Below, piece by piece: positions 1,298-44,035 of a DNA stretch of 64,000 nucleotides (position 1 is its first letter; every line of letters begins with the position of its first letter). The notes under the pieces were generated by a model that worked only from the letters and a program-made list of their open reading frames with translations, made no database searches and was not told the origin of the DNA. Position numbers and translations under genes: made by a program. The stretch comes from a virus. The DNA lies in IMG/VR virus record IMGVR_UViG_3300006141_000001; one strand, given 5' to 3'.

Positions 1298-1618
1298 CTA
1301 TTCATCCAACGATAGTCCGATATCTGATTGTTTAAACAAAACTGCATATTGATTTGATTCACTTGCAGATTTTCTTATAATATATCCATTATCTTTTAAT
1401 ATTTTAATTGTTCCTTTTGTCAAACCATTAAACCACGTTCCTACAGAGCTTTGATCATAAATGTGATTCACAATATTATACCTAATTTTGTTCATTACTC
1501 GTTTTGCAACTTTTCTATCCGAATAATGTTTATTGAAATCACTAATTGCTCGTTTCACTTTATACATATTTTCACCTCCGACACCCAAGGAAATCGTGCT
1601 TTCGTTATTCCAAAGCAA
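1298..1618 (-). CDS. hypothetical protein
   Basis: ORF track; same-strand operon context. Confidence 0.4.
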   Translation of the reverse strand: MLWNNESTISLGVGGENMYKVKRAISDFNKHYSDRKVAKRVMNKIRYNIVNHIYDQSSVGTWFNGLTKGTIKILKDNGYIIRKSASESNQYAVLFKQSDIGLSLDE

Positions 1619-1682
1619 TTATCGTTCTTTCAGTAACAATATGTTTTGGAATAACCTTATTAAAATTCACATTACTCTTTTT

Positions 1683-2084
1683 TTAATCAATCCTTTTTAC
1701 ATTCACAGGAATCCACATATTTGGGTTAAAATTCAGTGTGTACTTATATTTAGAAACTGCGTTTGCTCCTAAATTCAAATCTTCAATCACATATGTAACA
1801 TTGTCACTTAATCCCACAAAATGTTTTGTATATGTGCCGCCATTTTCTACGATTATTTCAAGCTGATTATCAGACCTATCCGCTTTAATTGACATCCTTC
1901 CAGACATCTGAAATAATATGTCTCCGCCAATACAATTAATTACTGTCAATTGGCGGACTATATTAAAATTATCTGCCTCCTGAGAAATGTTGTATTCTAC
2001 TCTTTGTGCTTCAGTATTACATCCAGCAAACAGACCACACCCTAGGCATCCCGCAAATAATAATCCAACTAATTTCTTCTTCAA
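1683..2084 (-). CDS. putative lipoprotein
   Basis: N-terminus MKKKLVGLLFAGCLGCGLFAGC has a signal peptide with a lipobox-like LFAGC. Confidence 0.5.
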   Translation of the reverse strand: MKKKLVGLLFAGCLGCGLFAGCNTEAQRVEYNISQEADNFNIVRQLTVINCIGGDILFQMSGRMSIKADRSDNQLEIIVENGGTYTKHFVGLSDNVTYVIEDLNLGANAVSKYKYTLNFNPNMWIPVNVKRID

Positions 2085-2111
2085 TATATTACTGTTCCTC
2101 TCTCTGATTTT

Positions 2112-2480
2112 TTAATTATATTCTCCATTTATGCGTTGCTCTAATATTTTTGTTTTTCCTCTTTTGCCCCTATTAGGATTTGATAGTTTCTCTGAAAGAA
2201 TTTCATCAATTACAGAAAACTCTTCCATTGTCTTTAGTCCTGGCACATGGACGGCAATATAATTCGCATCTGTATACAAATCATCATTTTTACCCGTCAT
2301 TTCATTTAAGACCTGAGAAAGCAAACTCAATACGCTGTCTGCGCCTAATTTATAAGCTACTTTTTCTTCACTACTCATACCTGGCTTATCCCCTAATGCA
2401 AAGTTTTCAAAAATTTCTTTCACATAACTATAAATATCAAATCCTACTAAAACCACATCTTTATCTTCCATATTTTTCAT
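2112..2480 (-). CDS. hypothetical protein
   Basis: ORF track. Its start abuts the stop of the upstream DHH gene as TGA-ATG. Confidence 0.45.
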   Translation of the reverse strand: MKNMEDKDVVLVGFDIYSYVKEIFENFALGDKPGMSSEEKVAYKLGADSVLSLLSQVLNEMTGKNDDLYTDANYIAVHVPGLKTMEEFSVIDEILSEKLSNPNRGKRGKTKILEQRINGEYN

Positions 2481-3410
2481 TCACTCCCTATTAAAAATTT
2501 CTTTGATCGTTTTTAGTAATATTTCTTTTGGGAATTGAGATCCTGCTGCTTTAGGATGCCCTCCTCCTCCAAATTGTTTAGCAATTGTTTGCCCTAAATT
2601 CAAGTCTTCTCTAATAGTTCTATATGATACAGTCCCGTCCATATCAATCATTGCAATAAAATCAATTTCAGGATGCATCTTACATAACCTATTCCCAAGT
2701 TCGCTAAAATACTTTTCTGCAAATACACATCCTGCAATCCAACCACATATTGGCAATGTAAATAGCTGTTTATCCTTTTTTTCTATATAATCGTCAATTT
2801 CTTTCTGTATAATGTTTAAGAGGAGTTTATCTGTATCATCCAAATTGAAAGAATCACCACAGAATATTTTCGATATACACCAAGAAATAAATTTTTCTCT
2901 TCCATATAAGTACAATAAATCATTTACCTGCTTACACAAAATTCCTTCATCACCAAGTTCTGCCCATCTCCACGTATCATAATTTCTAACCAATTCTACA
3001 AATACATCTAATAATTTATTATTTTCTAATTCATCATTGAAGCATCCATTCATGCCTAACCAATGATAAAACATTTTTGTCCCTGATGTCTTCAATCCGC
3101 CAGGCTCTTCTACTGTCACTCTACACCAACTATATTTATTTAAGTCCAACGCTGTTGGATGATGATCTAATAATTGAGCATTACCTCTTTTATCTAATAG
3201 TTTTGCCACTTCTTCATTTACGCTGATATCTGTAATGTAAATTAAATTTTTATTATCGTTGTTACTTATATAATCCGATATCTTCTCATTGATTTCATCA
3301 TAATTGCAATATTCGACATCAACATTACCCCGAAAAGCTAATTTTGCTAATATTGCACATCCAATGCCGTCTAAATCTGTATGTGTAAATACTTTAACCA
3401 AACAATCCAT
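2481..3410 (-). CDS. DHH/DHHA1-family phosphoesterase (NrnA- or RecJ-like nuclease or nanoRNase)
   Basis: DHH motifs HTDLDGIGC and LLDHHPT, and the C-terminal DHHA1 motif GGGHPKAAG. Confidence 0.8.
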   Translation of the reverse strand: MDCLVKVFTHTDLDGIGCAILAKLAFRGNVDVEYCNYDEINEKISDYISNNDNKNLIYITDISVNEEVAKLLDKRGNAQLLDHHPTALDLNKYSWCRVTVEEPGGLKTSGTKMFYHWLGMNGCFNDELENNKLLDVFVELVRNYDTWRWAELGDEGILCKQVNDLLYLYGREKFISWCISKIFCGDSFNLDDTDKLLLNIIQKEIDDYIEKKDKQLFTLPICGWIAGCVFAEKYFSELGNRLCKMHPEIDFIAMIDMDGTVSYRTIREDLNLGQTIAKQFGGGGHPKAAGSQFPKEILLKTIKEIFNRE

Positions 3411-3420
3411 CTCCTTTATT

Positions 3421-3624
3421 TCAACTTTTTATACCAAAAAATTTTTCACAGAAGTCCCTAATATCTTTAACGATATCTTCATTCATCTTACCGCTATTAC
3501 ACATATCGAGGACTGCTCCAAGAATACCTGCAGCACCAGCTTTTAATTCTTGAAAACGGACTTCTTCTAAAGTTGATTTAATTTCTCTATTTATTTGCTT
3601 CTCCTGTTTTTTCGTTAATGCCAT
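3421..3624 (-). CDS. hypothetical small protein
   Basis: ORF track. Confidence 0.35.
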   Translation of the reverse strand: MALTKKQEKQINREIKSTLEEVRFQELKAGAAGILGAVLDMCNSGKMNEDIVKDIRDFCEKFFGIKS

Positions 3625-3878
3625 AATACTAACACTCCTTTCATAGAATTATGCGGGTGAAGATTTGCACTTCACATAGTTCTGCCACACTACTCACTTT
3701 CCTATACCAGATTCACCCTTCGGCTACTACAGAACCTTTCCCTAGAGTCTACAATTAAGAAACGCCTAATTATTAGCTGATATCTCGCTCACTTCGGATC
3801 ATGAAGCAGCACTCTATCTGTTTCTTTTTACCATCTGTTTACATAGATGTCTATTCCTCCACCGCATAAAATTCCTTG

Positions 3879-4502
3879 TCATTTTTTTAATTTATTTTTC
3901 TTTGTCGTTTGCACATCCCAATGCTCATCTGTTTGGATATGGTTTTCTCTAACATATTTTGCAACATTATTACAAAAGTCGTTATACATAAAAGAGTCTG
4001 TATTTCTAACCACTATCCCCTCACCCCCTTGTTTGACAATTTCTCTTGCAATTCCAACTGTTTTTTCTATGTCATAAATACCTTTATATAATACAGGAAC
4101 TGTTTCAACCCCTATCATATCGCAAAATTTTTCTGTATCATCCCATGATAAGCATCTATTGCTTTCCCACACTGAAAACACCAGAAAAAACGATTTTAAA
4201 TCAATATATTTTATCGAATGCTGTGCATACAGATATTCTCCACATATCCTATATCCCTCTGGAATTAAATACTGAAAATATCTTATATAATTTAAGAGCC
4301 AAGAATGGTAGTCTTTATGTGATGATTCTATACTTCTTGCATGATAATAATCTTTATAGATAGTCGTATTCTCGCCATCCATTTTTTCTGTTATCACTAC
4401 TTCTTTCCCACGGAATTGGTTATCATTTTTCAATACCTTATCATCACTTGTATGCCCTTTTGAATATGGCAAATGATAAGTTCTTGGATATTTATATCTC
4501 AT
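3879..4502 (-). CDS. ATP-dependent RNA ligase-like nucleotidyltransferase (compact Rnl2-type)
   Basis: Motif I KMDG (VITEKMDGENT). It also has EGIVVRN (motif IV-like), AKYVRENH (motif V-like) and N-terminal YPRTYHL, as in RNA_ligase-family proteins. Confidence 0.6.
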   Translation of the reverse strand: MRYKYPRTYHLPYSKGHTSDDKVLKNDNQFRGKEVVITEKMDGENTTIYKDYYHARSIESSHKDYHSWLLNYIRYFQYLIPEGYRICGEYLYAQHSIKYIDLKSFFLVFSVWESNRCLSWDDTEKFCDMIGVETVPVLYKGIYDIEKTVGIAREIVKQGGEGIVVRNTDSFMYNDFCNNVAKYVRENHIQTDEHWDVQTTKKNKLKK

Positions 4503-4504
4503 AA

Positions 4505-4798
4505 TTATTTTTCTCTTAATTGACTTTTTAGGGGAAAATTGTCTACAGTTTCACTTTTATTTGTATATTTTATTTTATTGCTGGGAACAAAGATAATAGT
4601 ATCGTTGCCACAAAGATAATTTTCTGGTACTGCCAACTTTTCAAATATGTAGTTATCACCAAGTTCCTCTTCTAATTCGGAAAACACATCTATTCCATAT
4701 TGGGAAGAAATGACAGCAACTTCCCCTCTCGGATTACATTTTTCTAATAGTCCTTCTATTACATTTTTTAGTTCACTTATTTTTAACGATTCGACCAT
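4505..4798 (-). CDS. hypothetical protein
   Basis: ORF track. Confidence 0.4.
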   Translation of the reverse strand: MVESLKISELKNVIEGLLEKCNPRGEVAVISSQYGIDVFSELEEELGDNYIFEKLAVPENYLCGNDTIIFVPSNKIKYTNKSETVDNFPLKSQLREK

Positions 4799-5007
4799 AT
4801 TTTTACCTCGATTCTGTTTTCTTATAAACTTCTTTTGCTATTTACTCTAAACATTCTATACAAATATCAAATTTCTTTATTGTAACATCAAAAACAGACT
4901 CATTGTAAAAATCCAATCCCCCTACACTCTAAGGTTGGAAGTTCAATGCTTTCTGTCTTAGAATTTTTCTTGCAAAAATCACAAAAATACTTTACCATAT
5001 GTCTCTC

Positions 5008-5580
5008 CTAATCCATTATTTTATATAATTCTTCATAAATTGCCTTGATAACCTCTGCGTCATAAAGGGCATTATGTTTTTCTCCCTCAATTTGTTGCCC
5101 GCACAGTTCGGAAACAATATCTTCTCTGCTCTTATCAAAGGCTTCTCTGTCAGAAATACCATAATGCTTTGCAATGTCCTGATTGATATCATGGCAAGCC
5201 GCTGACACATTCCCAGGTAAATCAAACGCACCGCCGAAAATATCAATCAGTAAGACAAAATCATAGTGACTCACATCGGACAGAAACTGAATATCTGCAT
5301 ACTGTTGCAGCCATTTTAATAGTTCGCTACGAATTTGTTTTTTTGTTCCGACCGAAACAATAAGATTTTTCATGTTTTGATGCAACTCATAAAGAGTATT
5401 ATTCCCGCCAATCACTGTATTGGTTATTACATTTTTCTTAATCCAATCATCACATTGAGTTTTATCGTAGTCTGTAAATTCTGCATAAAATTTCTTGCCA
5501 TCCTCTGCAATAATTCCCAGGCTGACAAGGGTTGTTCCCTTATACAGTCCTGTAAATTCTGTATCAAAAAATAATTTCAT
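5008..5580 (-). CDS. DEDDh 3'-5' exonuclease (DnaQ or oligoribonuclease-like)
   Basis: Exo I motif FFDTEFTG and the Exo III H-x4-D motif HNALYDAEV. Confidence 0.7.
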   Translation of the reverse strand: MKLFFDTEFTGLYKGTTLVSLGIIAEDGKKFYAEFTDYDKTQCDDWIKKNVITNTVIGGNNTLYELHQNMKNLIVSVGTKKQIRSELLKWLQQYADIQFLSDVSHYDFVLLIDIFGGAFDLPGNVSAACHDINQDIAKHYGISDREAFDKSREDIVSELCGQQIEGEKHNALYDAEVIKAIYEELYKIMD

Positions 5581-6101
5581 GATTTCCTCCTTTTATCGCA
5601 AAATTGTGAAGCCACAAGTTTCTTTTACAAATTCAGGATCTTTAATCTCTATATATTCTTCTTTTGTCCAATCAAATTTAAACCACCATCTATTTACTGC
5701 TGGATTATATAATCCTTCATAGACTTCTTCTATAAGCGCATAATTATAGCATCTCTCATTTATATCACAGCAATTTTCTGTAACTGATGAATAAGCGTTC
5801 TCAAAATTTTGATACCATCCAACAACCTAGGAGCATCCGAACTCAGGAATCTTCATTTTTCGTTAATTTTCAAATTTTCCATCACCACAATCACATATAT
5901 CTTATCCAAATTATTGCCTCCCCTGTTAGCTATTTTCCATTTCTTTTTGAAGGTTGTATTTCTCTAATAGAAAACTCACGTTATGTTCCTTATTATATTT
6001 ATCACACGACTCTTGGGCTTCCTTTTTGTTTGCAAAAACACCTATGCCAGGGTTCTTATTGATTATTAATCCGTAGCCATCATCGTCAGTTGTATATATT
6101 T

Positions 6102-6369
6102 CTAATGATTTTTACTATTTTTTAAACGTATACTGGCTCCAATCTTTATAGGTTTGCTAACTATTTTTTCTATAACTTCTTTATGTTCAAATTCACCTTT
6201 ACATTCAGGACAAGTAAACTTTTTATATCTATACAAAATCTCTCCTGTATTATCGCAATATCCACATTTTCTATGAAAACCAAAGTGGTGTTGTATATTA
6301 TCCTCTAAATATATTGTATGACCAATTTTAAATGTTCCTTCTTCAAATCTACATTCTTTTATTTCCCAT
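6102..6369 (-). CDS. Small zinc-ribbon protein with an apparent +1/-1 frameshift after 5 codons. Possible assembly error.
   Basis: GGAGGG RBS, then ATG GGA AAT AAA AGA, then a frame change into CRFEEGTF...HRKCGYCDNTGEILYRYKKFTCPECKG. The body of the ORF has no start codon of its own. Confidence 0.3.
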
Positions 6370-6407
6370 TACAACATATTTTCCCTCCGTTTTGGAATAA
6401 AACAATC

Positions 6408-7169
6408 TTAGAGCAACCTGCCTTTGTTATATGTAAACAGTTTTTCCATCCTAATATTGGCATCATCCGATTTACTTTTATTGCAGTCTAAAAGGGTCTT
6501 TGTTTCTTTAGACCAGATACAGGTAAATTCCTCTGGCATTGAATATTCGCTTATCAATACAACATTATTTTCACTCGCCGATTTAACCCAGTCATAAAAT
6601 TCTTCGTATGAAAATATTTCTGTTTTATATTTCGTGGTTCCACGATAAGGAATATCGCAATAAATAACATAGTCTTTTATCTTCTCTAAAGGCAAATCTT
6701 TAAAATCACATTGTCCAAATTTTATGCCTTTTAAATTCGGAATCTGTTTTATCGTATTATTATATGCTTCTAAAGAATAATTTCTTTTCCCAGTTTTATC
6801 CCTTCGATAACCTCCAAACCATTTGCTGCCATATGATAATTGAAATCCTACGTAACCAACTAAATAATCTGGATATTTCTCTTTGTTAAATTGTATTTCT
6901 CTATATTCCTCTTCTGTAAATTCCTTTGGAGGGATCCAGCCTCTTTCTATTTTTTTTAAAACTGCAATTAAATATTTATGGATATCTGTGCCAATCTTAT
7001 GATTACATTGAATTTTATCAATCATATTAGCACCGCCTACGAATGGTTCTAAATATCCTTTTGTATCTTCTGTAATATAAGATTGGATAATCGGCACTAA
7101 ATGTTTTGCTAATCTATTTTTACTACCAACGTATTTTATTTTGTTCACCAGAAAGTCCATATGGTTCAC
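6408..7169 (-). CDS. dam: DNA N6-adenine methyltransferase (Dam family)
   Basis: Motifs KYVGSKNRL, EPFVGGA (FxGxG) and DIPY (DPPY variant). Confidence 0.8.
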   Translation of the reverse strand: MNHMDFLVNKIKYVGSKNRLAKHLVPIIQSYITEDTKGYLEPFVGGANMIDKIQCNHKIGTDIHKYLIAVLKKIERGWIPPKEFTEEEYREIQFNKEKYPDYLVGYVGFQLSYGSKWFGGYRRDKTGKRNYSLEAYNNTIKQIPNLKGIKFGQCDFKDLPLEKIKDYVIYCDIPYRGTTKYKTEIFSYEEFYDWVKSASENNVVLISEYSMPEEFTCIWSKETKTLLDCNKSKSDDANIRMEKLFTYNKGRLL

Positions 7170-7241
7170 AGTAGCTACACTTTGTTTTCCTTTCTGATTT
7201 TATATTCTTTTTTAATAAGTTGTCCTGTTGAAATTAACCTT

Positions 7242-7799
7242 TCAAAGCCTTTTACAGAACACCAACTTGGGTTTTAATTCATCCGGCTTTGTATTCCACA
7301 CTCTTTTCCCACCAGTAAATACACCTATCTCATGTCCTGGAACCCTCCTACATGTAAACCCCTTAGTCTGTCCTATTAAAGTCCAGTTATCAGCTTTGTA
7401 TATAGCACCCGTCCTTGGCAATTCTACAAGACTTTCAAAACCAATTACTTTATCTTTATACCTCTCCTCCCAATCAAGTACTACTTGTTTTCTCCATTTA
7501 GATAACACCTTTGTTCCTAAATTTCTATCTCCATGATTGTCTATCAAATGAAAGAAATTGTTATTAATAATTCCATTTATGTAATAATCTTCTTCAAAAA
7601 ACTCATTTCTGTTTGGTAAGTGTAATGTTGCTGATCCACCAACAATAACACCAACAAATTCATTTTCGTCAAAAATATTATAAATTAACTGTCTACCTAC
7701 AAATCCTTTTGGATGTGAATAATGAATAGACATTAAATATTGCACATCTTTATCAGATTTCTTTTCTCTCTTCAGTTCTATCAAATTTATCAGGAGCAA
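7242..7799 (-). CDS. hypothetical protein
   Basis: ORF track; no recognised motifs. Confidence 0.45.
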   Translation of the reverse strand: MLLINLIELKREKKSDKDVQYLMSIHYSHPKGFVGRQLIYNIFDENEFVGVIVGGSATLHLPNRNEFFEEDYYINGIINNNFFHLIDNHGDRNLGTKVLSKWRKQVVLDWEERYKDKVIGFESLVELPRTGAIYKADNWTLIGQTKGFTCRRVPGHEIGVFTGGKRVWNTKPDELKPKLVFCKRL

Positions 7800-18788: not shown

Positions 18789-20120
18789 TTATAATCAACT
18801 CCTCCGCTTCTTCCATATCTGGGGCATCTGCACTGTCTTTAATAATTCCTTCAAGGACTTTAAAGCTAAAATTTTTATGTTTATATGCCTTAAATGTTTC
18901 CCTATTGTCAATCCTCACTACAACACCTTCCCTTACATGTGTCTTTCCAATCGGGTCTTCCCCATCATAATATTTTTCTACACGTTCCATTAAATCTTCC
19001 CATGTAGTAAAGACAAACTTTTCAAATGTGGGAACGCATTTAACTCCTAATTTCTCACATTCAATTTGAACTTGTTCCCATGGAATTTCTACAGTAAACC
19101 CATCTTCTCCTGTCATAGTCATACGATACACATAAATATCGTTTTCTCCTGGCTTACATCCATATGAAAATACCGTTTCTTTCCCATACTTCTTCTCAAA
19201 TTCCTTATCTTTTACTTTTTTATTGGAACATCTTCCCATTATTGTTTGGTCGCCTTCTGTATACCCAACAATTTCATAGAATATTTCTACTCCCTTGGGA
19301 AGCTTGTCTTTGAAGAAATTCTGATATTTTTCCCTGAATTTATTACTCCCATAAAATCCACCATTATAATCTTTTAAAACTTTCCTTCTAGTTCCGCTAA
19401 CAATCTTAAACTTACGAATTTCTTTATCATTCAGTTTGAATACTTTTTTTAGGAAAAGATTTCTTTTTCTTTTTTTCACCTCAATAGCATTCGCCGTGCG
19501 ATTCGATGTTCCATGCATCTTCAGCGTTATATAGCAAGTATCTCCTGGCTTGAATGCATTTTTATTATATGCAAGTTGCTCTGTGTCGCTATGTTCTTTA
19601 AAGAATGGATACGAAATTATTTCCTTTTCATCTTTTCTCTTCTTTTTCTTGTTATCGTGTGTGGCATTACTTCTTCTATTTGTCTTTGGAATATACTTCC
19701 TGCAAATCTCATGTCCATTCAGGACAGAAACTTTATCACCGTCAGATAAGGTTTCAATATCCACATATTTTCCCAACCTTTCGATTGGCAATACCAATCC
19801 ATCTGATTTCTCACCCCTTAATTTTAAAGCAGTAATATTCCTTTTGTTGGGGTCAAGATAACCACCAACATTATTCCCATCTCATCTTTTAACCTGACAA
19901 GATTATTCTCAATGGCAAATTCTTCACTTAACTGCCCATCTACAGGGAAATAGACTACTCTTTGTCCTTCTTTATACGATAAATCTACGATTACGTTATT
20001 TCCAAAAACTGTTGCGCATAACAACCTATCTGCATTACTATGCTTTCTAAGTTCTTTAATTGTTGTTATGTATCCACAATACCCATTGATAATATTCTGT
20101 TCCATTTCGCTTACCATCAT
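18781..20120 (-). CDS. ATP-dependent RNA ligase (Rnl2 or nick-sealing type) with an N-terminal OB-like module. It is interrupted by a 1-nt frameshift near 19840.
   Basis: Downstream ORF: motif I LKMHGTS (KxHGT as in T4 Rnl2), IFYEIVGY, EGVVVRID and KAYKHKNFSFK (motifs IV and V). Upstream 98-aa ORF: ITTIKELRKHSNADRL..GQRVVYFPVDGQLS, resembling the N-domain of some RNA ligases. The frames join as ...KDEMG/NNVGGYLDPNKR... Confidence 0.6.
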
Positions 20121-22769: not shown

Positions 22770-23795
22770 TTAAACTCCTTTCACAATTCGCTCATTTACA
22801 TACATTTTGAACTCATTGATTTTCTTATAGTCTGGAAAATCTGGAAGAGATGTGTTGTTTTTTGCATATTCAAACTTCTTCTCATACCCATCCAGTAAAT
22901 CATAAAACGCAGATGTAGGCTGCCTATTCTCATCAAGAAATTCACCATTCCTAATTCTCATAAGTAAATCATGCTCGTCTGCTCTATATGTGATGATTTC
23001 TTCTTTTTCGAGAATGTCAATGCACATCATGTAAAGCCGGATCAAATGTGCTGAATGTTTCCCTAATTTATCATGTGATATCGCTTTTTCATTTCGCTTC
23101 CCAATTTTATTATAACTGCTTACAATGGCCTTCATCTCGTTACACATTCCTGCCCAGTCCCTCAACGGATAATGCCTTAACCTTGCATCAATGAAAATTT
23201 CACTATCGTACCCTTCATGTTCTGATTTATCAATATAAAGTTTCACCCTGCTGTTGCTTTGCGGGTAATACCTATTCTTAAAATCATACTTCGCATTTTT
23301 TATGCTTTTAAGGATATATGCTTCATTTTGTGCCTGCCCTACTAACCTGGCCGATTTATTGCCCAACCTACGGAGCTGGGACTGGGCATACCCGCCGAAT
23401 GTATGGATGCAGATTTTGGAAAGAAACATTCTTTTGTTACCTAGAAGTTCTTTCCCAATATCAGATAAATATAGATAATGTTCCGGAAGGGAACCCAAAC
23501 ATTCGATTACATTAGGGTTGCATTTTGTAAGTAGCTCAATCATTTTATTAAATGAATACATCACGGTATCTGTTTCTGTATCTACAACCTGCCCAAAATC
23601 AGTCCCCAATAGGATATCTTTCTTAGAATTTAACGCAATCCCTCTTACATCCAAATCAGACCCTTCCTTTTCCATCCCATAAGCATGGCTTCCTCCTACT
23701 GTTAAAAGAATAATATTGCTACCTAAATTTTTATCTTTCTTCAAAAAAGCATACTCATCTGATTTTATTTTTTCTTTTATTTGCCCAATGTTCAT
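22770..23795 (-). CDS. Pol-beta-superfamily nucleotidyltransferase
   Basis: TVGGSHAYGMEKEGSDLDVRG matches the G[GS]-x(9-13)-DxD NTase signature. Confidence 0.65.
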   Translation of the reverse strand: MNIGQIKEKIKSDEYAFLKKDKNLGSNIILLTVGGSHAYGMEKEGSDLDVRGIALNSKKDILLGTDFGQVVDTETDTVMYSFNKMIELLTKCNPNVIECLGSLPEHYLYLSDIGKELLGNKRMFLSKICIHTFGGYAQSQLRRLGNKSARLVGQAQNEAYILKSIKNAKYDFKNRYYPQSNSRVKLYIDKSEHEGYDSEIFIDARLRHYPLRDWAGMCNEMKAIVSSYNKIGKRNEKAISHDKLGKHSAHLIRLYMMCIDILEKEEIITYRADEHDLLMRIRNGEFLDENRQPTSAFYDLLDGYEKKFEYAKNNTSLPDFPDYKKINEFKMYVNERIVKGV

Positions 23796-26497: not shown

Positions 26498-26680
26498 TTA
26501 AAAATTATTGTTTTTAATCAAATACAAACCTGAATATCCTCCCAATCCTCCTCCTTGTGTAGTTAACGCACAGGCAATTCCATCAGAATCATACACACGA
26601 TATCCTTGTTTATAATTTCTGGACAAATCCTTCCCATTGTCCAACCACTTATTGCTTTCTATCCCGCCAACAAATATCAA
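26498..26680 (-). CDS. C5-methyltransferase TRD-end-like fragment (TTG start, overlapping the upstream stop). Possibly a remnant or a frameshifted extension.
   Basis: NYKQGYRVYDSDGIACALTTQGGGLGGYSGLYLI resembles the conserved end of C5-MTase target-recognition domains. Confidence 0.3.
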   Translation of the reverse strand: MIFVGGIESNKWLDNGKDLSRNYKQGYRVYDSDGIACALTTQGGGLGGYSGLYLIKNNNF

Positions 26681-28500
26681 TTCATTGGCAGTTTCTGAAA
26701 ATTTTCTACAACTAAACTATCTTTTGGAGCTGTGGTGATGGCATTTGACAATCCATCATTCCGTATTTCTATTTTTTGTTTTATTTCTTCATTTGAATTA
26801 TACCTTCCACGCATAGCAGCACCAACACCATCTAATATAGCTGATTTATGTTCACAACAAATAGACTCATCTACATGTTGTTGAATAAAACTTTCTTGGA
26901 GTTTTTCATCGGTACATATATATGTATCATCATATTGAGCCTTATATAAATGCTCCGCTAATAACGCACAGCAATTTGTGATTATTCCATTCCCTGCTTG
27001 TTTATATAGATGTGTATTCGCAATACCTATTTCTGCAGCTTTATCACAATCTTCGAAAGTCAATCCCATGAGTTTATAACATTCTTTCGGAGTTAATTTA
27101 CGGATTCTAATTGTTTTATATAATCCGTTAATCACGGCATTTGTTGGTTGATTTCCAAATCCTTTATGATCTCTAGCAAGTAATGTACATGCAAAATCTA
27201 TTTCTTTCTCAGATTTAGTCCCTTGATTTGAAACTAAGACCGTAATATCTGGAATTTCAAGAACAGCCGTTCCTTCTTTTTTCCTATTGCTTGATCCCCG
27301 ATTTTCACTTGCAGTTATACAATTTGCATTTTCAATTATCTTAGGGTTGTTGGTTGTTTTATCTATTCCACATATGATTTTAGCATTATTACCATGTCCT
27401 GCCGTATGTGTTGGTGATATTCCTTCTGGTGATACGACTATTCCGTCTTGCGAGGAATTAATCTCTCCAACTTTCAAAATATTATTTTCTGTTAAGTACC
27501 ATCCAGTTTTTGCACCGCCTCCACCGGCCTCGGATTTTAACGTCCTGCTAATATTATCTGAATACACCCTATTTGCATCCCCGTTATAATTATTGATATA
27601 CCCTACTTGATGGAGTTCATTATCAATCCTGAAAATTTTTTCTAAATCAATAGTTTTTAGAAATTTTTTTACTTTTTCGTCTGGTAAATAATATTTTTCA
27701 TCAACTTCTTTTTCTAAAATATCTTTTAGGCGTATACCAGTATCGAATGGTTTAGGAAATACATATTTACCTTTATCAATATCTTTCCTAATAGATATTA
27801 CAAAAACCCTTTCTCTTGATTGCGGGACTCCACAATTTTTCCCGTTGATTATCGAGTAATAAGAATTAAACCCCAACCCATCTAATATTCCTAACAAATC
27901 ATTAAAATTATTGATAAATTTTTTACTCACAAGATTTTTGACATTTTCAAACATTATGTATTTTGGAAGGGAATTACTATCTTTTGCTTTCTTGAGCAAT
28001 CTTATGTTTTCCCATAGCAGGCTACTTCTTGTACCACTATCAGGATTTAACCCTTTCATTTTTCCGCAAACGCTGATATCCGTGCAAGGAAAAGAACATG
28101 TCCATAAATCTGCATATGGCAATTCTTCAATTTTACTTATATCCCCTAAATTATGCGTCAGTTTACAAGCCAACCAATATTTCTCCAGATCCTTCTTCTT
28201 TCTCTTCACTAATTTAAGCCAATCGGACTTCTTGCCTTTCTCAGGATCATAGCCCAAATTTATATCCATTAAGTGCTGAGCCATCTCTTCCTTGGACGGA
28301 TACCCCTTATATGAAATAACCATTCCATCCGTCAAGCCACAATGGATAGCAGCATATGATAACACAGATTCTTTGCTTATTTCTGATGTATTTACTACTT
28401 CAATGTCAAATACTCCTGAGTCCCTAAATCCTCTTGTTTGACATCCTATTCCTGAAAATAATTCGTTTACTGTTAATTTTATTTTCTTATTTTCTTCCAA
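26677..28500 (-). CDS. DNA (cytosine-5)-methyltransferase with repeated TRD-like segments. Possibly multispecific.
   Basis: Motif I FSGIGC, IV SFPCTDIS, VI MFENVKNL and VIII QSRERVFVI. Several target-recognition-domain-end-like stretches (ANRVYSDNISRTLKSEAGGGG, GIVVSPEGISPTHTAGHG). Motif IX is RKLTPKECYKLMGL and motif X is LYKQAGNGIITN, followed by a roughly 100-aa extension. Confidence 0.85.
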   Translation of the reverse strand: MEENKKIKLTVNELFSGIGCQTRGFRDSGVFDIEVVNTSEISKESVLSYAAIHCGLTDGMVISYKGYPSKEEMAQHLMDINLGYDPEKGKKSDWLKLVKRKKKDLEKYWLACKLTHNLGDISKIEELPYADLWTCSFPCTDISVCGKMKGLNPDSGTRSSLLWENIRLLKKAKDSNSLPKYIMFENVKNLVSKKFINNFNDLLGILDGLGFNSYYSIINGKNCGVPQSRERVFVISIRKDIDKGKYVFPKPFDTGIRLKDILEKEVDEKYYLPDEKVKKFLKTIDLEKIFRIDNELHQVGYINNYNGDANRVYSDNISRTLKSEAGGGGAKTGWYLTENNILKVGEINSSQDGIVVSPEGISPTHTAGHGNNAKIICGIDKTTNNPKIIENANCITASENRGSSNRKKEGTAVLEIPDITVLVSNQGTKSEKEIDFACTLLARDHKGFGNQPTNAVINGLYKTIRIRKLTPKECYKLMGLTFEDCDKAAEIGIANTHLYKQAGNGIITNCCALLAEHLYKAQYDDTYICTDEKLQESFIQQHVDESICCEHKSAILDGVGAAMRGRYNSNEEIKQKIEIRNDGLSNAITTAPKDSLVVENFQKLPMN

Positions 28501-35743: not shown

Positions 35744-36976
35744 TTAATCAGCTTGCTTTATATCGTTCCTTGCCTTTCCGAATGAGTGATAAATAACGTC
35801 AAATTGCTGTTTTAAGTCCTTTACCTCGAAGCTATCAACCGATTCAAATATTCCAGGAACTTCATTGCTGTGTGTTATGGAAAGAGAAATTTTCCAGCCT
35901 TTCCCATTAGAAAAATCTTTTTGTATTCTGTTTAATAATTCAGAAACATTCATTTTCCCATAACGCATTGTCCCTTGATGTTGGTTCGGTACATTTGTCA
36001 AATCTTCCATATCTGGATTGATTTCTTCTTTTCCGCACTCATTATCAATCCTGCCCGCCCCGTGCCTTGTTAGATATGGTCTTGTGACATAACAGACTTC
36101 AACATTTGAATCTGGAAACAATCTTAAAATCATTTCCGCCGGATTCTTTAATCCGGTGTTGCTTGGTGTCAAATGAGGAAAATATTCTTTATTATTCTGG
36201 TCTAACAGAAGTCCTTGCCCTCCCTCGAAAATAATATTCTGGTATTTTTCGAGTGCGTTTGTATCTCCGCAAACCGTTACATGACTTGCCGTAAATTCCA
36301 AATCTGAAAGAAACTGTTCAATCAACCCATCAGCATTTATTATTTCTTCCCATTCTCTACTTGACCGCATTTTCAATTCGTTAAAGCGTTTTGGCAGATA
36401 TGTATGTTTTATGGCTTTGATTGCATCTTTGTTCCGCTTGCCGCAATTCTCCAATAAAACCCATGCCGGATAACCATAGTTTTCCTCATAACGTTTAATG
36501 GTTTCAAAAATCCCCATGCCACAGCTTCCATGTCGCCCATTAGAACGGTTTTCTTCCAAAATCTGATTGATTATCATATCAAATGGTGTTGTTACTCTGC
36601 ACGAAGGATTCAAATATACTGTTGGTTCATATCCTAATTTCTGCAATTCTTCCCATTCTTGTCTGAATAAAATGGGATTTACAATAAACTCCTTTGATAA
36701 ATAAGTATCTGCTCCTGCAAAAACCCCGGAACCAAAATGGTGGAACACATGGTGCGACCCCTCCGCCGTGTCTACCGTATGCCCTCTTTGTGCGCCACCG
36801 TTATGGCACACTACAATACAGTTTTCACCCCGTAGGGCGGCTTGGTGGCAAAAATAATCTGCCACCAAGCCTTTTCCTTCATCACCAAAGTTTGCACCGA
36901 TTACAACTTTGATGTTTTTCTTTACCACGAAATCATCCCTCCTGCATTTTCTTCTGTTCTTGTTTCTGTCGCCCAC
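35744..36976 (-). CDS. adenylosuccinate-synthetase-family enzyme (divergent PurA/PurZ-like)
   Basis: VVIGANFGDEGKGLVAD (GDEGKG P-loop), NGGAQRGHTV, FEGGQGLLLD and YVTRPYLTRHGAGR. These align with the PurA motifs GDEGKGK, GGHNAGHT, FEGAQGTLLD and STRVGAGPF. Confidence 0.65.
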   Translation of the reverse strand: MGDRNKNRRKCRRDDFVVKKNIKVVIGANFGDEGKGLVADYFCHQAALRGENCIVVCHNGGAQRGHTVDTAEGSHHVFHHFGSGVFAGADTYLSKEFIVNPILFRQEWEELQKLGYEPTVYLNPSCRVTTPFDMIINQILEENRSNGRHGSCGMGIFETIKRYEENYGYPAWVLLENCGKRNKDAIKAIKHTYLPKRFNELKMRSSREWEEIINADGLIEQFLSDLEFTASHVTVCGDTNALEKYQNIIFEGGQGLLLDQNNKEYFPHLTPSNTGLKNPAEMILRLFPDSNVEVCYVTRPYLTRHGAGRIDNECGKEEINPDMEDLTNVPNQHQGTMRYGKMNVSELLNRIQKDFSNGKGWKISLSITHSNEVPGIFESVDSFEVKDLKQQFDVIYHSFGKARNDIKQAD

Positions 36977-42228: not shown

Positions 42229-42855
42229 TCAAAATCCACTTTTGCGATAAACGTTATCTGTGTTTTCCAGATACTCAAAAACACATTCTGGGACATAATC
42301 CTTAACCGAGCCTAACTGGTTATTGACATACGCCTCCCTTATCTGTGTCGATGATACTTCTTGATATGCCCCTTCAATATATCTAAAATTACCATTATAT
42401 TGCATTAATGATTCATGTAATTTCCCATTGTCATTATTCCTAGTAATCACCAAAAACCTATTATCCCTAACTACCTCTTCTGCTTTATACCATCTGTGGA
42501 TTTCACAAAGTTTGTCTGCCCCAATGCATATAATAGGATCCATTTTTCTATAATACTGGATTGTATTATATGTTTTGCCATCTACTGTCCCATTTATCTC
42601 AATGTTCGATACATGAAAACCGAATTTTTTCACTGCCTCATGTAATAGCAGGAATCTCTTATCTCCATCCAATACCATCCCATCTCCGTACTTTTTCCAG
42701 TCTTTTAAAAATTTATCATTAGATGGAACAAAAACAATATTAGCTGATGGATATACCATCTTGCAACAAATGCCCATATTTATATGGGCATTTGTCACAG
42801 GATTAAAAGCACCAAAAATCAATACTGACTTATTCATACTGCAATCTCCAGTCAA
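42229..42855 (-). CDS. nadD: nicotinate/nicotinamide mononucleotide adenylyltransferase (NadD/NMNAT family)
   Basis: LIFGAFNPVTNAH ((H/T)xGH motif), ICIGADKL, VSSTQIREAY (ISSTxIR) and VPECVFEYL. Confidence 0.65.
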   Translation of the reverse strand: MTGDCSMNKSVLIFGAFNPVTNAHINMGICCKMVYPSANIVFVPSNDKFLKDWKKYGDGMVLDGDKRFLLLHEAVKKFGFHVSNIEINGTVDGKTYNTIQYYRKMDPIICIGADKLCEIHRWYKAEEVVRDNRFLVITRNNDNGKLHESLMQYNGNFRYIEGAYQEVSSTQIREAYVNNQLGSVKDYVPECVFEYLENTDNVYRKSGF

Positions 42856-44035
42856 TACATCTCTGCAAATAGTTTACATAATCGAGGTTCTTGCAAATTC
42901 CTTTCCCAACATCATCTGAAATCTTTGCCACATCTTGTCCATTACATTTTGTAACTTTCATGACAATATTCAACGGCTCCACATCCGTATCATTAGAAAT
43001 ATAAGTCCCTATCCCAAACGCAATCTTTGCCCTTTCTTTAAAATAATGATAGATTTTATCTGCTTTTTCAAAGTTTAAACTGTCACTAAAAAGCAATGTC
43101 TTACTCCTTGGGTCTATCCCTAGATCTTTATAATGGTTAATTATTTTTTCTCCCCATTCATACGGACTGCCACTATCATGTCTCACACCACTGAATAAAG
43201 TGGCATAAGTAAGGTTAAAATCTTTCAAAAAACAATCTGTCCCAATGGTATCTGTAAGAGCCGTCCCATTAAGGATCCCATATTCTCTTACCCAAGCTTC
43301 CATCGCATACCAATTCGAATAAGCAGGATTATGCTTATGGTTCCCTTGGCCTACACACATAATAAACTCATGCGCTTGGGTTCCTGTGGGCATTAAATTA
43401 TACTTCATTGCCAAATAAACGTTAGAAGTCCCAACAAAAACTGAGCAGCAATATTTGATTCCAGATAACTTTTGCACTGCCATTTCTTGAGCTTCGGCAG
43501 AAAGCCTGCGCCTAAGTCCAAATTCACTAAAAGAAGAGAGATAATACCTTCCTTGATATATTCCTAGCCATTCCGCTTTCTCCTCCAATTTTTCTGTAAA
43601 CACTTCCATCAAATGTCTATAATTATGTGCCATTTTAAAATACACTTCATTTACTATTGCTAAAACCGGGATCTCATACATACTTGTGTTAAGCCATGTA
43701 CCTTTAGTTTCAATCACCAGACCACATTTTGAATTAACTGTTATATCAAAATCCTCAAAACGTGGCTGCCATAAACGCAAAAAATCCACATAATTTCCCT
43801 TAATCCAACGAATATTTTTTAAATATTGAAGCTCCTGTTCAGTAAACTTAAGGCTACAATACAATTTAATTTGGCGCTTAATCTCTTGAACCATTTCAGG
43901 CGTAAAAAATATATCTTTATTACGGCATTTAAACGTCCAAGTAGTTTTATAGTCCGAAAATTGATGAAGAATGACTTGCCCCATACTAAATTTGTATAAA
44001 TCATTCTCCAATAAACTATTAATAATCCTATCCAT
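42830..44035 (-). CDS. pncB: nicotinate phosphoribosyltransferase
   Basis: LLENDLYKFSMGQ (compare E. coli PncB LLDTDAYKLHMQQ), GTQAHE, GVRHDSGSPYEWGEK and LNIVMKVTKCNGQDVAKISD. Confidence 0.8.
   Translation of the reverse strand: MDRIINSLLENDLYKFSMGQVILHQFSDYKTTWTFKCRNKDIFFTPEMVQEIKRQIKLYCSLKFTEQELQYLKNIRWIKGNYVDFLRLWQPRFEDFDITVNSKCGLVIETKGTWLNTSMYEIPVLAIVNEVYFKMAHNYRHLMEVFTEKLEEKAEWLGIYQGRYYLSSFSEFGLRRRLSAEAQEMAVQKLSGIKYCCSVFVGTSNVYLAMKYNLMPTGTQAHEFIMCVGQGNHKHNPAYSNWYAMEAWVREYGILNGTALTDTIGTDCFLKDFNLTYATLFSGVRHDSGSPYEWGEKIINHYKDLGIDPRSKTLLFSDSLNFEKADKIYHYFKERAKIAFGIGTYISNDTDVEPLNIVMKVTKCNGQDVAKISDDVGKGICKNLDYVNYLQRCIDWRLQYE

Follow-up and report, generated by a model that had tools for sequence, protein, structure and literature searches.

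A small protein of 207 residues, encoded on the minus strand at positions 3879-4502 of the window (the whole 64,000-nucleotide stretch analysed, which is part of a phage genome), has the fold and the intact catalytic motifs of a ligase. On balance, it is probably an ATP-dependent RNA-type ligase made of the nucleotidyltransferase domain alone, serving as the sealing half of a heal-and-seal pathway together with the phage's Pnk-HD enzyme, and functionally unrelated to its immediate neighbours. We infer an RNA substrate, cooperation with Pnk-HD in trans and a role in the repair of tRNA or other RNAs.

A sequence-only reading had placed this protein between a DHH/DHHA1 phosphoesterase and a DEDDh exonuclease. 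The three genes and their motifs proved real, with family matches for each, and all five open reading frames of the region 2481-5580 are borne out on the minus strand:

2481-3410, minus strand: DHH/DHHA1 phosphoesterase (309 aa; phrog_26954 'DHH phosphoesterase', 4.5e-30)
3421-3624, minus strand: orf67, a small protein
3879-4502, minus strand: small RNA-ligase-type nucleotidyltransferase, a lysine adenylyltransferase (207 aa; PF09414 and phrog_34045)
4505-4798, minus strand: orf97, with a TAA stop 2 nt before the ligase ATG
5008-5580, minus strand: DEDDh 3'-5' exonuclease, Rv2179c-like (190 aa; PF16473, 36.2 bits for a cut-off of 27, residues 2-184)

Across four independent metagenome assemblies, the segment 1500-7500 is gap-free and 99.8-100% identical, and the reading frames are therefore not assembly artefacts. 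Stop-codon reassignment was rejected as a cause of the short frames, recoding any stop codon giving no convincing gain in length. An Rfam scan of the same segment returned zero matches at E <=1, the predicted fold of the 254-nt gap between orf67 and the ligase gene is no more stable than those of shuffled controls (z = -0.9), and promoter and terminator scans stayed at background level. PADLOC gave no meaningful defence-system match, only a weak match for the DEDDh protein (1e-4) and a spurious CARF fragment. We found no nucleotide similarity to deposited phages.

Since the orf97 stop lies 2 nt ahead of the ligase start, translational coupling of the two genes is likely. orf97 has no match in Pfam, PHROG or PADLOC and its homologues occur solely in assemblies of the same phage; as none of them adjoins any other ligase, we rejected orf97 as a general ligase partner supplied in trans.

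Ligase fold and intact catalytic motifs in a single domain

The 207-residue protein matches PF09414 with an E-value of 7e-32 (111.3 bits, gathering threshold 27), its residues 33-184 covering the profile from end to end (1-171 of 171), and phrog_34045 with 1.5e-75. Its sequence includes the peptides KYPRTYHLPYS, TEKMDGEN, GGEGIVVRN and AKYVRENH, and all motifs of the covalent nucleotidyltransferase superfamily can be placed: the KxDG lysine of motif I (K40-M-D-G-E-N), motif Ia (R56-S57), motif III (G88-E89), motif IIIa (F109..W112), motif IV (E161-G-I-V-V-R166) and motif V (K182-Y-V-R185). Among 87 stand-alone representatives of the family, selected at a mutual identity of <=50%, residues K40, D42, G43, E44, R56, S57, E89, E161, G162, V164, R166 and K182 are at least 95% conserved, motif IIIa being less conserved than the remaining motifs. 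An N-terminal peptide, K4-Y-P-R-T-x-H-L-P, is conserved too, and the C-terminal tail is basic. The AF2 model (pLDDT 90.8, pTM 0.88) displays the nucleotidyltransferase fold of the superfamily. With 32 residues ahead of motif I, an end only 22 residues past motif V and no second domain in the model, the protein is indeed a nucleotidyltransferase domain and nothing else, as had been claimed from the sequence.

A single-sequence search of the PDB gave no significant match, and the family profile reached a single ligase among solved structures, the Rnl3-like Aquifex protein 3qwu, weakly (E 0.006). Foldseek, which had been suggested as a check, recovered a ligase fold, with archaeal Rnl3 ligases on top (MthRnl, Pab1020 and Palaeococcus Rnl, along with Aquifex 3qwu; E 3e-7, 20% identity). 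In the alignment with 3qwu, EKVDGYN faces EKMDGEN, EGVVFK faces EGIVVR, and AKY is common to both. However, the N-terminal, dimerisation and C-terminal domains of Rnl3 are missing (207 residues versus 375-381 in the solved Rnl3 chains), and the Rnl3 model TIGR01209 scores 30.1 bits over the nucleotidyltransferase part only, far below its cut-off of 136.9. The N-terminal OB-like domain that defines Rnl5 (DraRnl, NgrRnl) is absent as well (TIGR02306, 15.2 bits for a cut-off of 151). T4 Rnl2 is a protein of 334 aa. The Rnl2 family, which includes T4 Rnl2 and trypanosome REL1, is defined by a C-terminal domain added to the nucleotidyltransferase core (PMC6379707). This helical domain, required by T4 Rnl2 for full nick sealing, is lacking in our protein, whose identity to the Rnl2 family is only about 18%.

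Relatives of this compact protein make up a very large family, spread over phages (large or jumbo ones in particular) and many bacteria. We counted 3,066 clusters at 90% identity and 2,141 representatives at 50% identity, with members in 331 IMG/VR contigs and at least 465 GTDB species. The gene is annotated as 'RNA ligase' in 33 deposited phages, nearly all of 234-735 kb, and one source labels a relative 'ATP-dependent RNA circularization protein'; neither the existence nor the annotation of the family is new, and the 207-residue protein is a typical member. The description 'unusually small' holds against characterised ligases but not within the family, where the usual length is about 207-220 aa. 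To our knowledge, no smaller ligase-type proteins than those of this family are known. Some members (P0155, P0192) are fused to a C-terminal AAA_33 kinase.

Conserved linkage to end-healing genes in bacteria

The sequence-only reading had tied the small ligase to RNA repair through genes located further along the phage genome, and bacterial genomes strengthen this link: in 60 of 80 bacterial loci a gene combining an AAA_33 kinase and an HD domain (Pnk-HD or HD-Pnk) directly adjoins the family ligase. This conserved linkage is found in two gene orders and at least five lineages. In about 40 loci of Paenibacillaceae, Pnk-HD is immediately upstream of the small-ligase gene, while in 20 loci of other phyla (Myxococcota, Gammaproteobacteria, Verrucomicrobiota, Trueperaceae, Neisseria) an HD-Pnk gene encoding 411-448 aa lies 4-10 nt downstream of it. 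The latter order is that of the Runella slithyformis ligase/HD-Pnk cassette, which in addition contains Tpt1 (AEI48611) and an MTase-HIT gene, not seen here (the Tpt1 search was crude and used an approximate query). In viruses, 7 of 79 small-ligase loci have a T4-type Pnkp within 8 kb, and 8 of 79 have Rnl1.

The repair genes of the phage itself, including the two cited in the earlier reading (Pnk-HD and a second PF09414 ligase), are the following:

17874-18788, minus strand: Pnk-HD, an N-terminal P-loop polynucleotide kinase with a C-terminal HD phosphoesterase (AAA_33, 3.7e-24; HD, 2.7e-4)
18781-20120, minus strand: second ligase of the DraRnl/NgrRnl (Rnl5) type, an N-terminal OB-like domain (PF21189) with PF09414
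22770-23795, minus strand: RlaP, RNA-ligase-associated Pol-beta nucleotidyltransferase (PF10127, 1.2e-20)

Pnk-HD matches phrog_505, 'polynucleotide kinase', and is 28-34% identical to its homologues at the ~40 Paenibacillaceae ligase loci (E down to 1e-38), the longest alignments spanning residues 7-303. Unlike the Runella cassette, the small ligase of this phage does not adjoin Pnk-HD, which is located about 13.4 kb away; nor is a Pnk gene present in the vicinity of the closest relatives of the ligase, which share 60-73% identity with it and come from Clostridia MAGs and phage contigs. The Pnk-HD gene is coupled instead to the Rnl5-type ligase, which overlaps its start by 8 nt (the overlap reads ATGAATGA). 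Even so, the small ligase probably has Pnk-HD as its partner, which would act in trans.

Does the phage carry redundant ligases, as was proposed? A second ligase gene is there (phrog_968, 3e-40), but in the window a 1-nt deletion within a run of G, near position 19,870, breaks it into frames of 98 aa and 338 aa, the latter at 18781-19797. Three sister assemblies have an intact frame of 445 aa, with GGGG where the window has GGG. The two ligases of the phage have no significant blastp similarity to each other, and several RNA ligases in one phage have been viewed as specialised rather than redundant (PMC7824862). RlaP, whose role is described in the same work, belongs to the RNA-repair gene set of the phage.

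Proposed sealing by a lone nucleotidyltransferase domain

In the pathway that we favour, Lys40 of motif I would attack ATP to form ligase-AMP, with the help of Glu89 (motif III), Glu161 (motif IV), Lys182 (motif V) and Arg56/Ser57 (motif Ia). The AMP would pass to the 5'-phosphate end of an RNA, and the attack of a 3'-OH on the adenylylated end would close the break. Ends fit for ligation would be made by a kinase/phosphatase. Pnk-HD (17874-18788) is the most likely candidate: it would add phosphates to 5'-OH ends and clear away the 2',3'-cyclic or 3'-phosphates left by host RNases, for example anticodon nucleases. With ends supplied in this way, the small ligase would carry out the sealing step of heal-and-seal RNA repair. 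The logic is shared with tRNA anticodon-loop repair by T4 Pnkp and Rnl1, where a kinase/phosphatase heals and a ligase seals, undoing the attack of a host RNase. The players differ: T4 Rnl1 belongs to another ligase clade and has a tRNA-specific C domain, and the T4 phosphatase is of the HAD type, against HD in this phage.

In the literature searched, we found no published sealing activity or substrate for any member of the family. Taken on their own, the nucleotidyltransferase domains of T4 Rnl2 and NgrRnl reportedly carry out the last ligation step only (PMC4408790), so that a ligase without further domains may depend on a partner or on an unusual substrate. Alternatively, the protein may be an adenylyltransferase of the ligase type which leaves ordinary 3'-OH/5'-PO4 breaks open and instead acts on non-standard ends (such as a 2'-phosphate), relies on a nucleic-acid-binding partner, or just adenylylates 5'-phosphates. 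The retention of step 3 alone by isolated domains would fit this alternative, as would the absence of an appended domain, each characterised RNA ligase family being defined by one (PMC6379707). The ligase of the Runella cassette, whose architecture is that of the bacterial ligase/HD-Pnk loci and which may belong to the family, self-adenylylates but gave no sealing with any of the standard 3'-OH/5'-PO4 substrates tried (PMC6097658). The strong conservation of the N-terminal peptide and of a C-terminal region with H188, W195 and the basic tail points in the same direction, and a complex would be consistent with the tight operon that includes HD-Pnk. However, the catalytic motifs of the three-step pathway are all intact, and thousands of copies stand alone, with no conserved neighbour in phages. 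A Tpt1/KptA homologue was found neither in the window nor beside relatives, to which we attach little weight given the crude search and approximate query. We thus regard a non-sealing adenylyltransferase as rather unlikely, and sealing by the small ligase, with ends healed by Pnk-HD, as the better account.

A broader proposal, which we put forward tentatively as one possibility, is that the small ligases constitute a seventh RNA ligase clade, devoid of appended domains and close to the stand-alone nucleotidyltransferase proposed as ancestor of all ligases. Such enzymes would leave ordinary breaks unsealed when alone, and would act on special ends or in complex with an HD/Pnk protein supplying substrate binding in trans.

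The DHH and DEDDh neighbours, and two remaining alternatives

The DHH protein contains HTDLDG, ITDIS, LLDHHP and GGGGHP, so that the DxD, D, DHH and GGGH motifs are all there, although its Pfam scores fall just short of the cut-offs (PF01368, 25.5 versus 28.1 bits; PF02272, 23 versus 25.9). The probable start codon of its gene is the TTG at 3401, which would shorten the protein to 306 aa. The best solved relatives are 6mtz and archaeal RecJ2, and the protein may be a nanoRNase, a RecJ-like enzyme or a cyclic-nucleotide phosphodiesterase. orf67 travels with it: at two other loci (L091 and L092), the DHH homologue has an orf67 homologue with 80-82% identity immediately upstream. The exonuclease includes FFDTEF and HNALYDAE, with D6/E8 and H178...D183 in place; it matches phrog_2259 (3e-44) and its N-terminus aligns to Rv2179c structures (E 1e-8). 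Against the RNase AS equivalog NF033638, a poly(A)-specific exoribonuclease, it scores 66.2 bits for a cut-off of 200, and it is therefore a family member rather than an RNase AS orthologue.

Do the three genes form one RNA-end-processing module, with nucleases that prepare ends by trimming or cleaning them and a ligase that joins these ends? They are co-oriented within 3.1 kb, and each of the families is capable of acting on RNA ends, Rv2179c being a 3'-5' exoribonuclease and DHH relatives including nanoRNases and RecJ2. In viruses, 6 of 79 ligase loci also have another DEDDh exonuclease, of the RNase_T family, within 8 kb. However, the genes are set apart by two unrelated small ORFs and by gaps of 254 and 209 nt, and the cluster claimed in the sequence-only reading does not recur in other phages, whichever gene is used as a probe. 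Neither this DHH gene nor this exonuclease occurs within 8 kb of the ligase in any of 80 IMG/VR loci or 2 other metagenomic relatives; neither the ligase nor the exonuclease lies near the DHH gene at 5 loci from other phage contigs; and neither the ligase nor the DHH gene occurs within 8 kb of the exonuclease at the 80 loci examined, out of 176 IMG/VR contigs with relatives. In those five contigs, the DHH gene sits near Mu Gam, a PD-(D/E)XK nuclease, a DNA methylase, TnpB and an adenylosuccinate-synthetase homologue, that is, among DNA recombination and modification genes, while the exonuclease elsewhere occupies the early region of a temperate gut-phage clade. The ligase thus lacks any conserved linkage to either gene, and the cluster looks like chance adjacency, in this phage lineage, of the ligase and two independently mobile accessory genes; a joint module is very unlikely.

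A minimal DNA ligase serving phage DNA replication, recombination or repair has, if anything, slightly poorer prospects. The protein scores 111 bits against PF09414 but 13 bits against PF01068, RNA ligases rank above DNA ligases by structure too, there is no OB domain, carrier phages often possess a DNA ligase already, and the partners with conserved linkage, the Pnk/HD enzymes, heal RNA/DNA ends. An mRNA capping-type guanylyltransferase or other non-ligase nucleotidyltransferase, suggested by the common superfamily and the KxDG motif, can practically be dismissed: an OB domain carrying motif VI is missing, and the closest structural similarity of the protein is not to guanylyltransferases.

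The repair set of this phage is thus made of one end-healing enzyme (Pnk-HD), two unrelated sealing enzymes and RlaP. As equipment for RNA repair in the face of host RNases, this set is typical; it is not a novel machine combining DHH, ligase and exonuclease activities. The 207-aa family, abundant in jumbo phages and many bacteria, is a reasonable target of biochemistry for RNA-repair specialists. Should the small ligases indeed form a seventh clade, the phage ligase and Pnk-HD would provide a compact two-protein system for finding the natural substrate of the bacterial ligase/HD-Pnk cassettes.

Identity and spread of the 207-aa ligase

The window is low in GC (30-41% GC), has a negative GC skew throughout and carries essentially all its genes on the minus strand. 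The five open reading frames (ORFs) that a sequence-only reading had described at 2481-5580 are all there exactly as described, and every motif it quoted is found in the translations.

Genes of the ligase locus (ORFs; motifs in translation where marked)
2481-3410, minus: DHH/DHHA1 protein (motifs)
3421-3624, minus: 67-aa ORF (orf67)
3879-4502, minus: 207-aa ligase-like protein, the small ligase (motifs)
4505-4798, minus: 97-aa ORF (orf97)
5008-5580, minus: DEDDh exonuclease (motifs)

In other samples, a 73-kb contig and three shorter ones carry an identical small ligase flanked by the same genes, and 1500-7500 aligns without gaps at 99.8-100% identity across these four assemblies. We found no nucleotide-level similarity between the window and deposited phages.

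The assignment of the 207-aa protein as a ligase is upheld by a match covering the whole PF09414 (RNA_ligase) profile (E 7e-32), end-to-end matches to two PHROG families, all six ligase motifs and a confident single-domain AlphaFold2 model (20 homologues; pLDDT 90.8, pTM 0.88). A Foldseek comparison of this model, a check that the sequence-only reading had suggested, ranks Rnl3 enzymes first and rules out a non-ligase fold. Among 87 stand-alone relatives of at most 50% mutual identity, the key residues of the motifs, motif IIIa excepted, are at least 95% conserved, as are K4, S14 and D21 of the N-terminal peptide and the C-terminal tryptophan W195; Y5-P6-x-T8-x-H10-x-P12 is 85-95% conserved. 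Each of the six named RNA ligase clades takes its definition from a domain attached to the nucleotidyltransferase core (PMC6379707). The core of the small ligase resembles those of Rnl2, Rnl3 and Rnl5, but their appended domains are absent from it and from its family, which thus falls in none of these three clades.

The protein had been called unusually small, which is true beside characterised enzymes but not within its own family, where this length is normal. A search of 5.8 billion proteins returned 3,066 clusters, the best 120 of which span 207-239 aa (one truncated fragment excepted) at 56-73% identity, under source names such as 'RNA ligase family protein' or 'ATP-dependent RNA circularization protein'. 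An exhaustive representative search gave 2,141 families at E <=1e-3, and 86 of the best 150 representatives have at most 240 aa. The extra length of longer forms comes in some from a C-terminal AAA_33 kinase, an intein or a topoisomerase IB domain, and in others from an N-terminal extension that is HNH nuclease-like by eye; HNH fusions of 'Rnl2 family' phage ligases were described by Iyer et al. (PMC7824862). Members of unusual architecture are P0130, whose ligase domain holds an intein with a LAGLIDADG endonuclease, P0128, fused to a eukaryotic-type topoisomerase IB, and P0121, a 2,792-aa protein with an N-terminal ligase domain. The family is present on 331 IMG/VR contigs and in at least 465 bacterial and archaeal species. 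Deposited phage genomes with a member number 33, nearly all of them 234-735 kb long (XacN1, Atu_ph07, Caulobacter Ccr phages, ME3, Phosso, Lak and other huge phages); their annotations label it 'RNA ligase', '2'-5' RNA ligase' or 'hypothetical'. Sequence and family-profile searches found no solved structure belonging to it, and a literature search no paper on its activity. The 207-aa protein thus joins a known, widely annotated and biochemically unexplored family.

Association with kinase/HD end-healing genes

The window has three further RNA-repair genes.

17874-18788, minus: Pnk-HD (kinase and HD domains)
18781-20120, minus: second ligase (PF09414 plus N-terminal OB-like domain; DraRnl/NgrRnl, or Rnl5, type; domain matches)
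22770-23795, minus: RlaP (domain match)

The link proposed between the small ligase and Pnk-HD holds, the decisive evidence being from cellular genomes: of 80 loci there, 60 have the small ligase directly beside a gene that joins a P-loop polynucleotide kinase to an HD phosphoesterase. In about 40 Paenibacillaceae loci (L198 and L203 have this order) a 322-aa Pnk-HD lies immediately upstream, with 28-34% identity to that of the window and longest alignments spanning residues 7-303. Myxococcota, Gammaproteobacteria, Verrucomicrobiota, Trueperaceae and Neisseria instead have, in 20 loci, an HD-Pnk of 411-448 aa that starts 4-10 nt past the ligase stop; examples are L197, L218, L225 and L237 (ligase at about 6001-6620) and L232 (3043-3681). 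Both domain and gene orders are opposite between the two-gene operons of Paenibacillaceae and those of other phyla. The occurrence of two gene orders across several phyla points to a functional pair that would heal ends and then seal them. RNA repair is the likely role. Near viral copies (79 loci) we found an ATP-dependent DNA ligase in 17, an Rnl1-type RNA ligase in 8, a T4-type Pnkp in 7, an HD protein in 7 and an RNase_T exonuclease in 6.

The model we favour, with some reserve, is that Pnk-HD would first heal broken RNA ends, which the small ligase would then seal by the classic three-step ATP-dependent reaction, the adjacent DHH and DEDDh genes taking no part. Its main rival, which we find unlikely yet worth weighing, is an enzyme that, devoid of an appended domain, could not complete the reaction on ordinary ends and would depend on either a partner or an unusual terminus. 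In its favour are the way isolated nucleotidyltransferase domains behave (PMC4408790) and the strong conservation of the small ligase's terminal peptides. A third point is the ligase-like protein of Runella slithyformis, which formed an enzyme-AMP adduct but failed to seal any standard 3'-OH/5'-PO4 substrate tried (PMC6097658). The Runella cassette, studied in Shuman's laboratory, is likened by arrangement alone to the 20 multi-phylum loci, sharing their ligase-then-HD-Pnk order; the parallel may serve as a lead.

The DHH and DEDDh neighbours and other genes of the window

The three-gene DHH-ligase-exonuclease module of the sequence-only reading was examined with each gene in turn as probe. 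With 8-kb flanks, 80 viral ligase loci showed no homologue of the window's DHH or exonuclease, and neither did two other metagenomic relatives of the small ligase. DHH relatives lie on five viral contigs (44-82% identity), all five without ligase or exonuclease; their neighbours include Mu Gam, a PD-(D/E)XK nuclease, a DNA methylase, TnpB and an adenylosuccinate-synthetase homologue. Exonuclease relatives lie on 176 viral contigs, mostly from one temperate gut-phage clade that has the gene in its early region, and the 80 contigs examined had neither ligase nor DHH gene. In the window the three genes do not abut: the gaps measure 254 and 209 nt, unrelated small ORFs intervene, and searches turned up neither an RNA element nor a clear regulatory signal uniting them. 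These observations indicate an adjacency specific to this phage lineage and give no support for joint function; such a module seems improbable. We give still less credence to a DNA ligase role, and a capping role, against which the Foldseek ranking argues, is hardly credible.

An orf67 homologue is kept directly upstream of DHH in two of the five contigs, so the two genes form a unit. An unrelated 121-kb viral contig (L150) has an orf67 homologue (6887-7057, 46% identity) some 950 nt upstream of an exonuclease homologue, the only cross-link seen between any flanking genes. At the DHH gene (3395-3410 region), the annotated ATG directly abuts the Shine-Dalgarno sequence; the TTG at 3401, 8 nt after AAAGGAG, is more likely the start, and homologue alignments start at residue 4-5.

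Two small minus-strand regions hold CxxC...CxxC proteins. At 4799-5007, a zinc-ribbon-like gene is apparently split, a 32-aa ORF stopping at TGA with the C-terminal half in the +1 frame past a G5 run; independent assemblies covering the region agree exactly, so random error is not the cause. At 6100-6407, a good Shine-Dalgarno (GGAGGG) is followed by ATG TTG TAA and then by an 86-codon open frame without its own 5' start codon; a sister contig has no gene called in the corresponding 827-bp gap, and the sequence is conserved across assemblies. The Phage_VG64-family protein at 1683-2084, labelled 'recombination directionality factor' in PHROGs, has a typical lipoprotein signal peptide at its N-terminus, MKKKLVGLLFAGCLGCGLFAGC. 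The phage of relative P0004 (L005) has another Phage_VG64 member immediately downstream of its ligase, and Acinetobacter phage ME3 has an 'RDF'-annotated gene 2.6 kb downstream of its ligase. A TerF-type vWA protein adjoins an SPFH/Band 7 protein at 14933-16658, a pair kept downstream of Pnk-HD in sister contigs. A dense DNA-modification set (6408-7799, 9115-10161, 12532-13608, 26677-28500) comprises a D12 adenine methylase and Mom/DruA-like, PAPS-reductase-like and SPASM radical-SAM-type proteins, with a 607-aa DNA methyltransferase. Two further genes have PHROG matches.

35744-36976: 410-aa PurZ-like protein (phrog_1211 'aminoadenylosuccinate synthetase', 1.8e-66)
42830-44035: nicotinamide phosphoribosyltransferase-like protein (phrog_448, 1e-18)

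The former is a hint of DNA synthesis with 2-aminoadenine (Z-base); on L092 (8437-9537), too, there is an adenylosuccinate-synthetase homologue, 2.5 kb away from the DHH homologue. The latter may replenish NAD+ against NAD-depleting defences.

Two ligases in one phage

The start of Pnk-HD overlaps the end of the second ligase by 8 nt. The second ligase is split in the window into ORFs of 98 and 338 aa and intact (445 aa) in three sister assemblies with an identical Pnk-HD; relative to these, the window has a 1-nt deletion (GGGG to GGG) at about 19,870. This is either a homopolymer error in the window's contig or a real frameshift, and thus a pseudogene, in this isolate. A true frameshift would leave the small ligase as the window's one intact sealing enzyme. 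A blastp comparison of the two ligases gave no significant similarity, so the pair did not arise by recent duplication. Multiple phage RNA ligases are seen as specialised rather than redundant (PMC7824862), and the presence of two dissimilar ligases in this phage fits that view.
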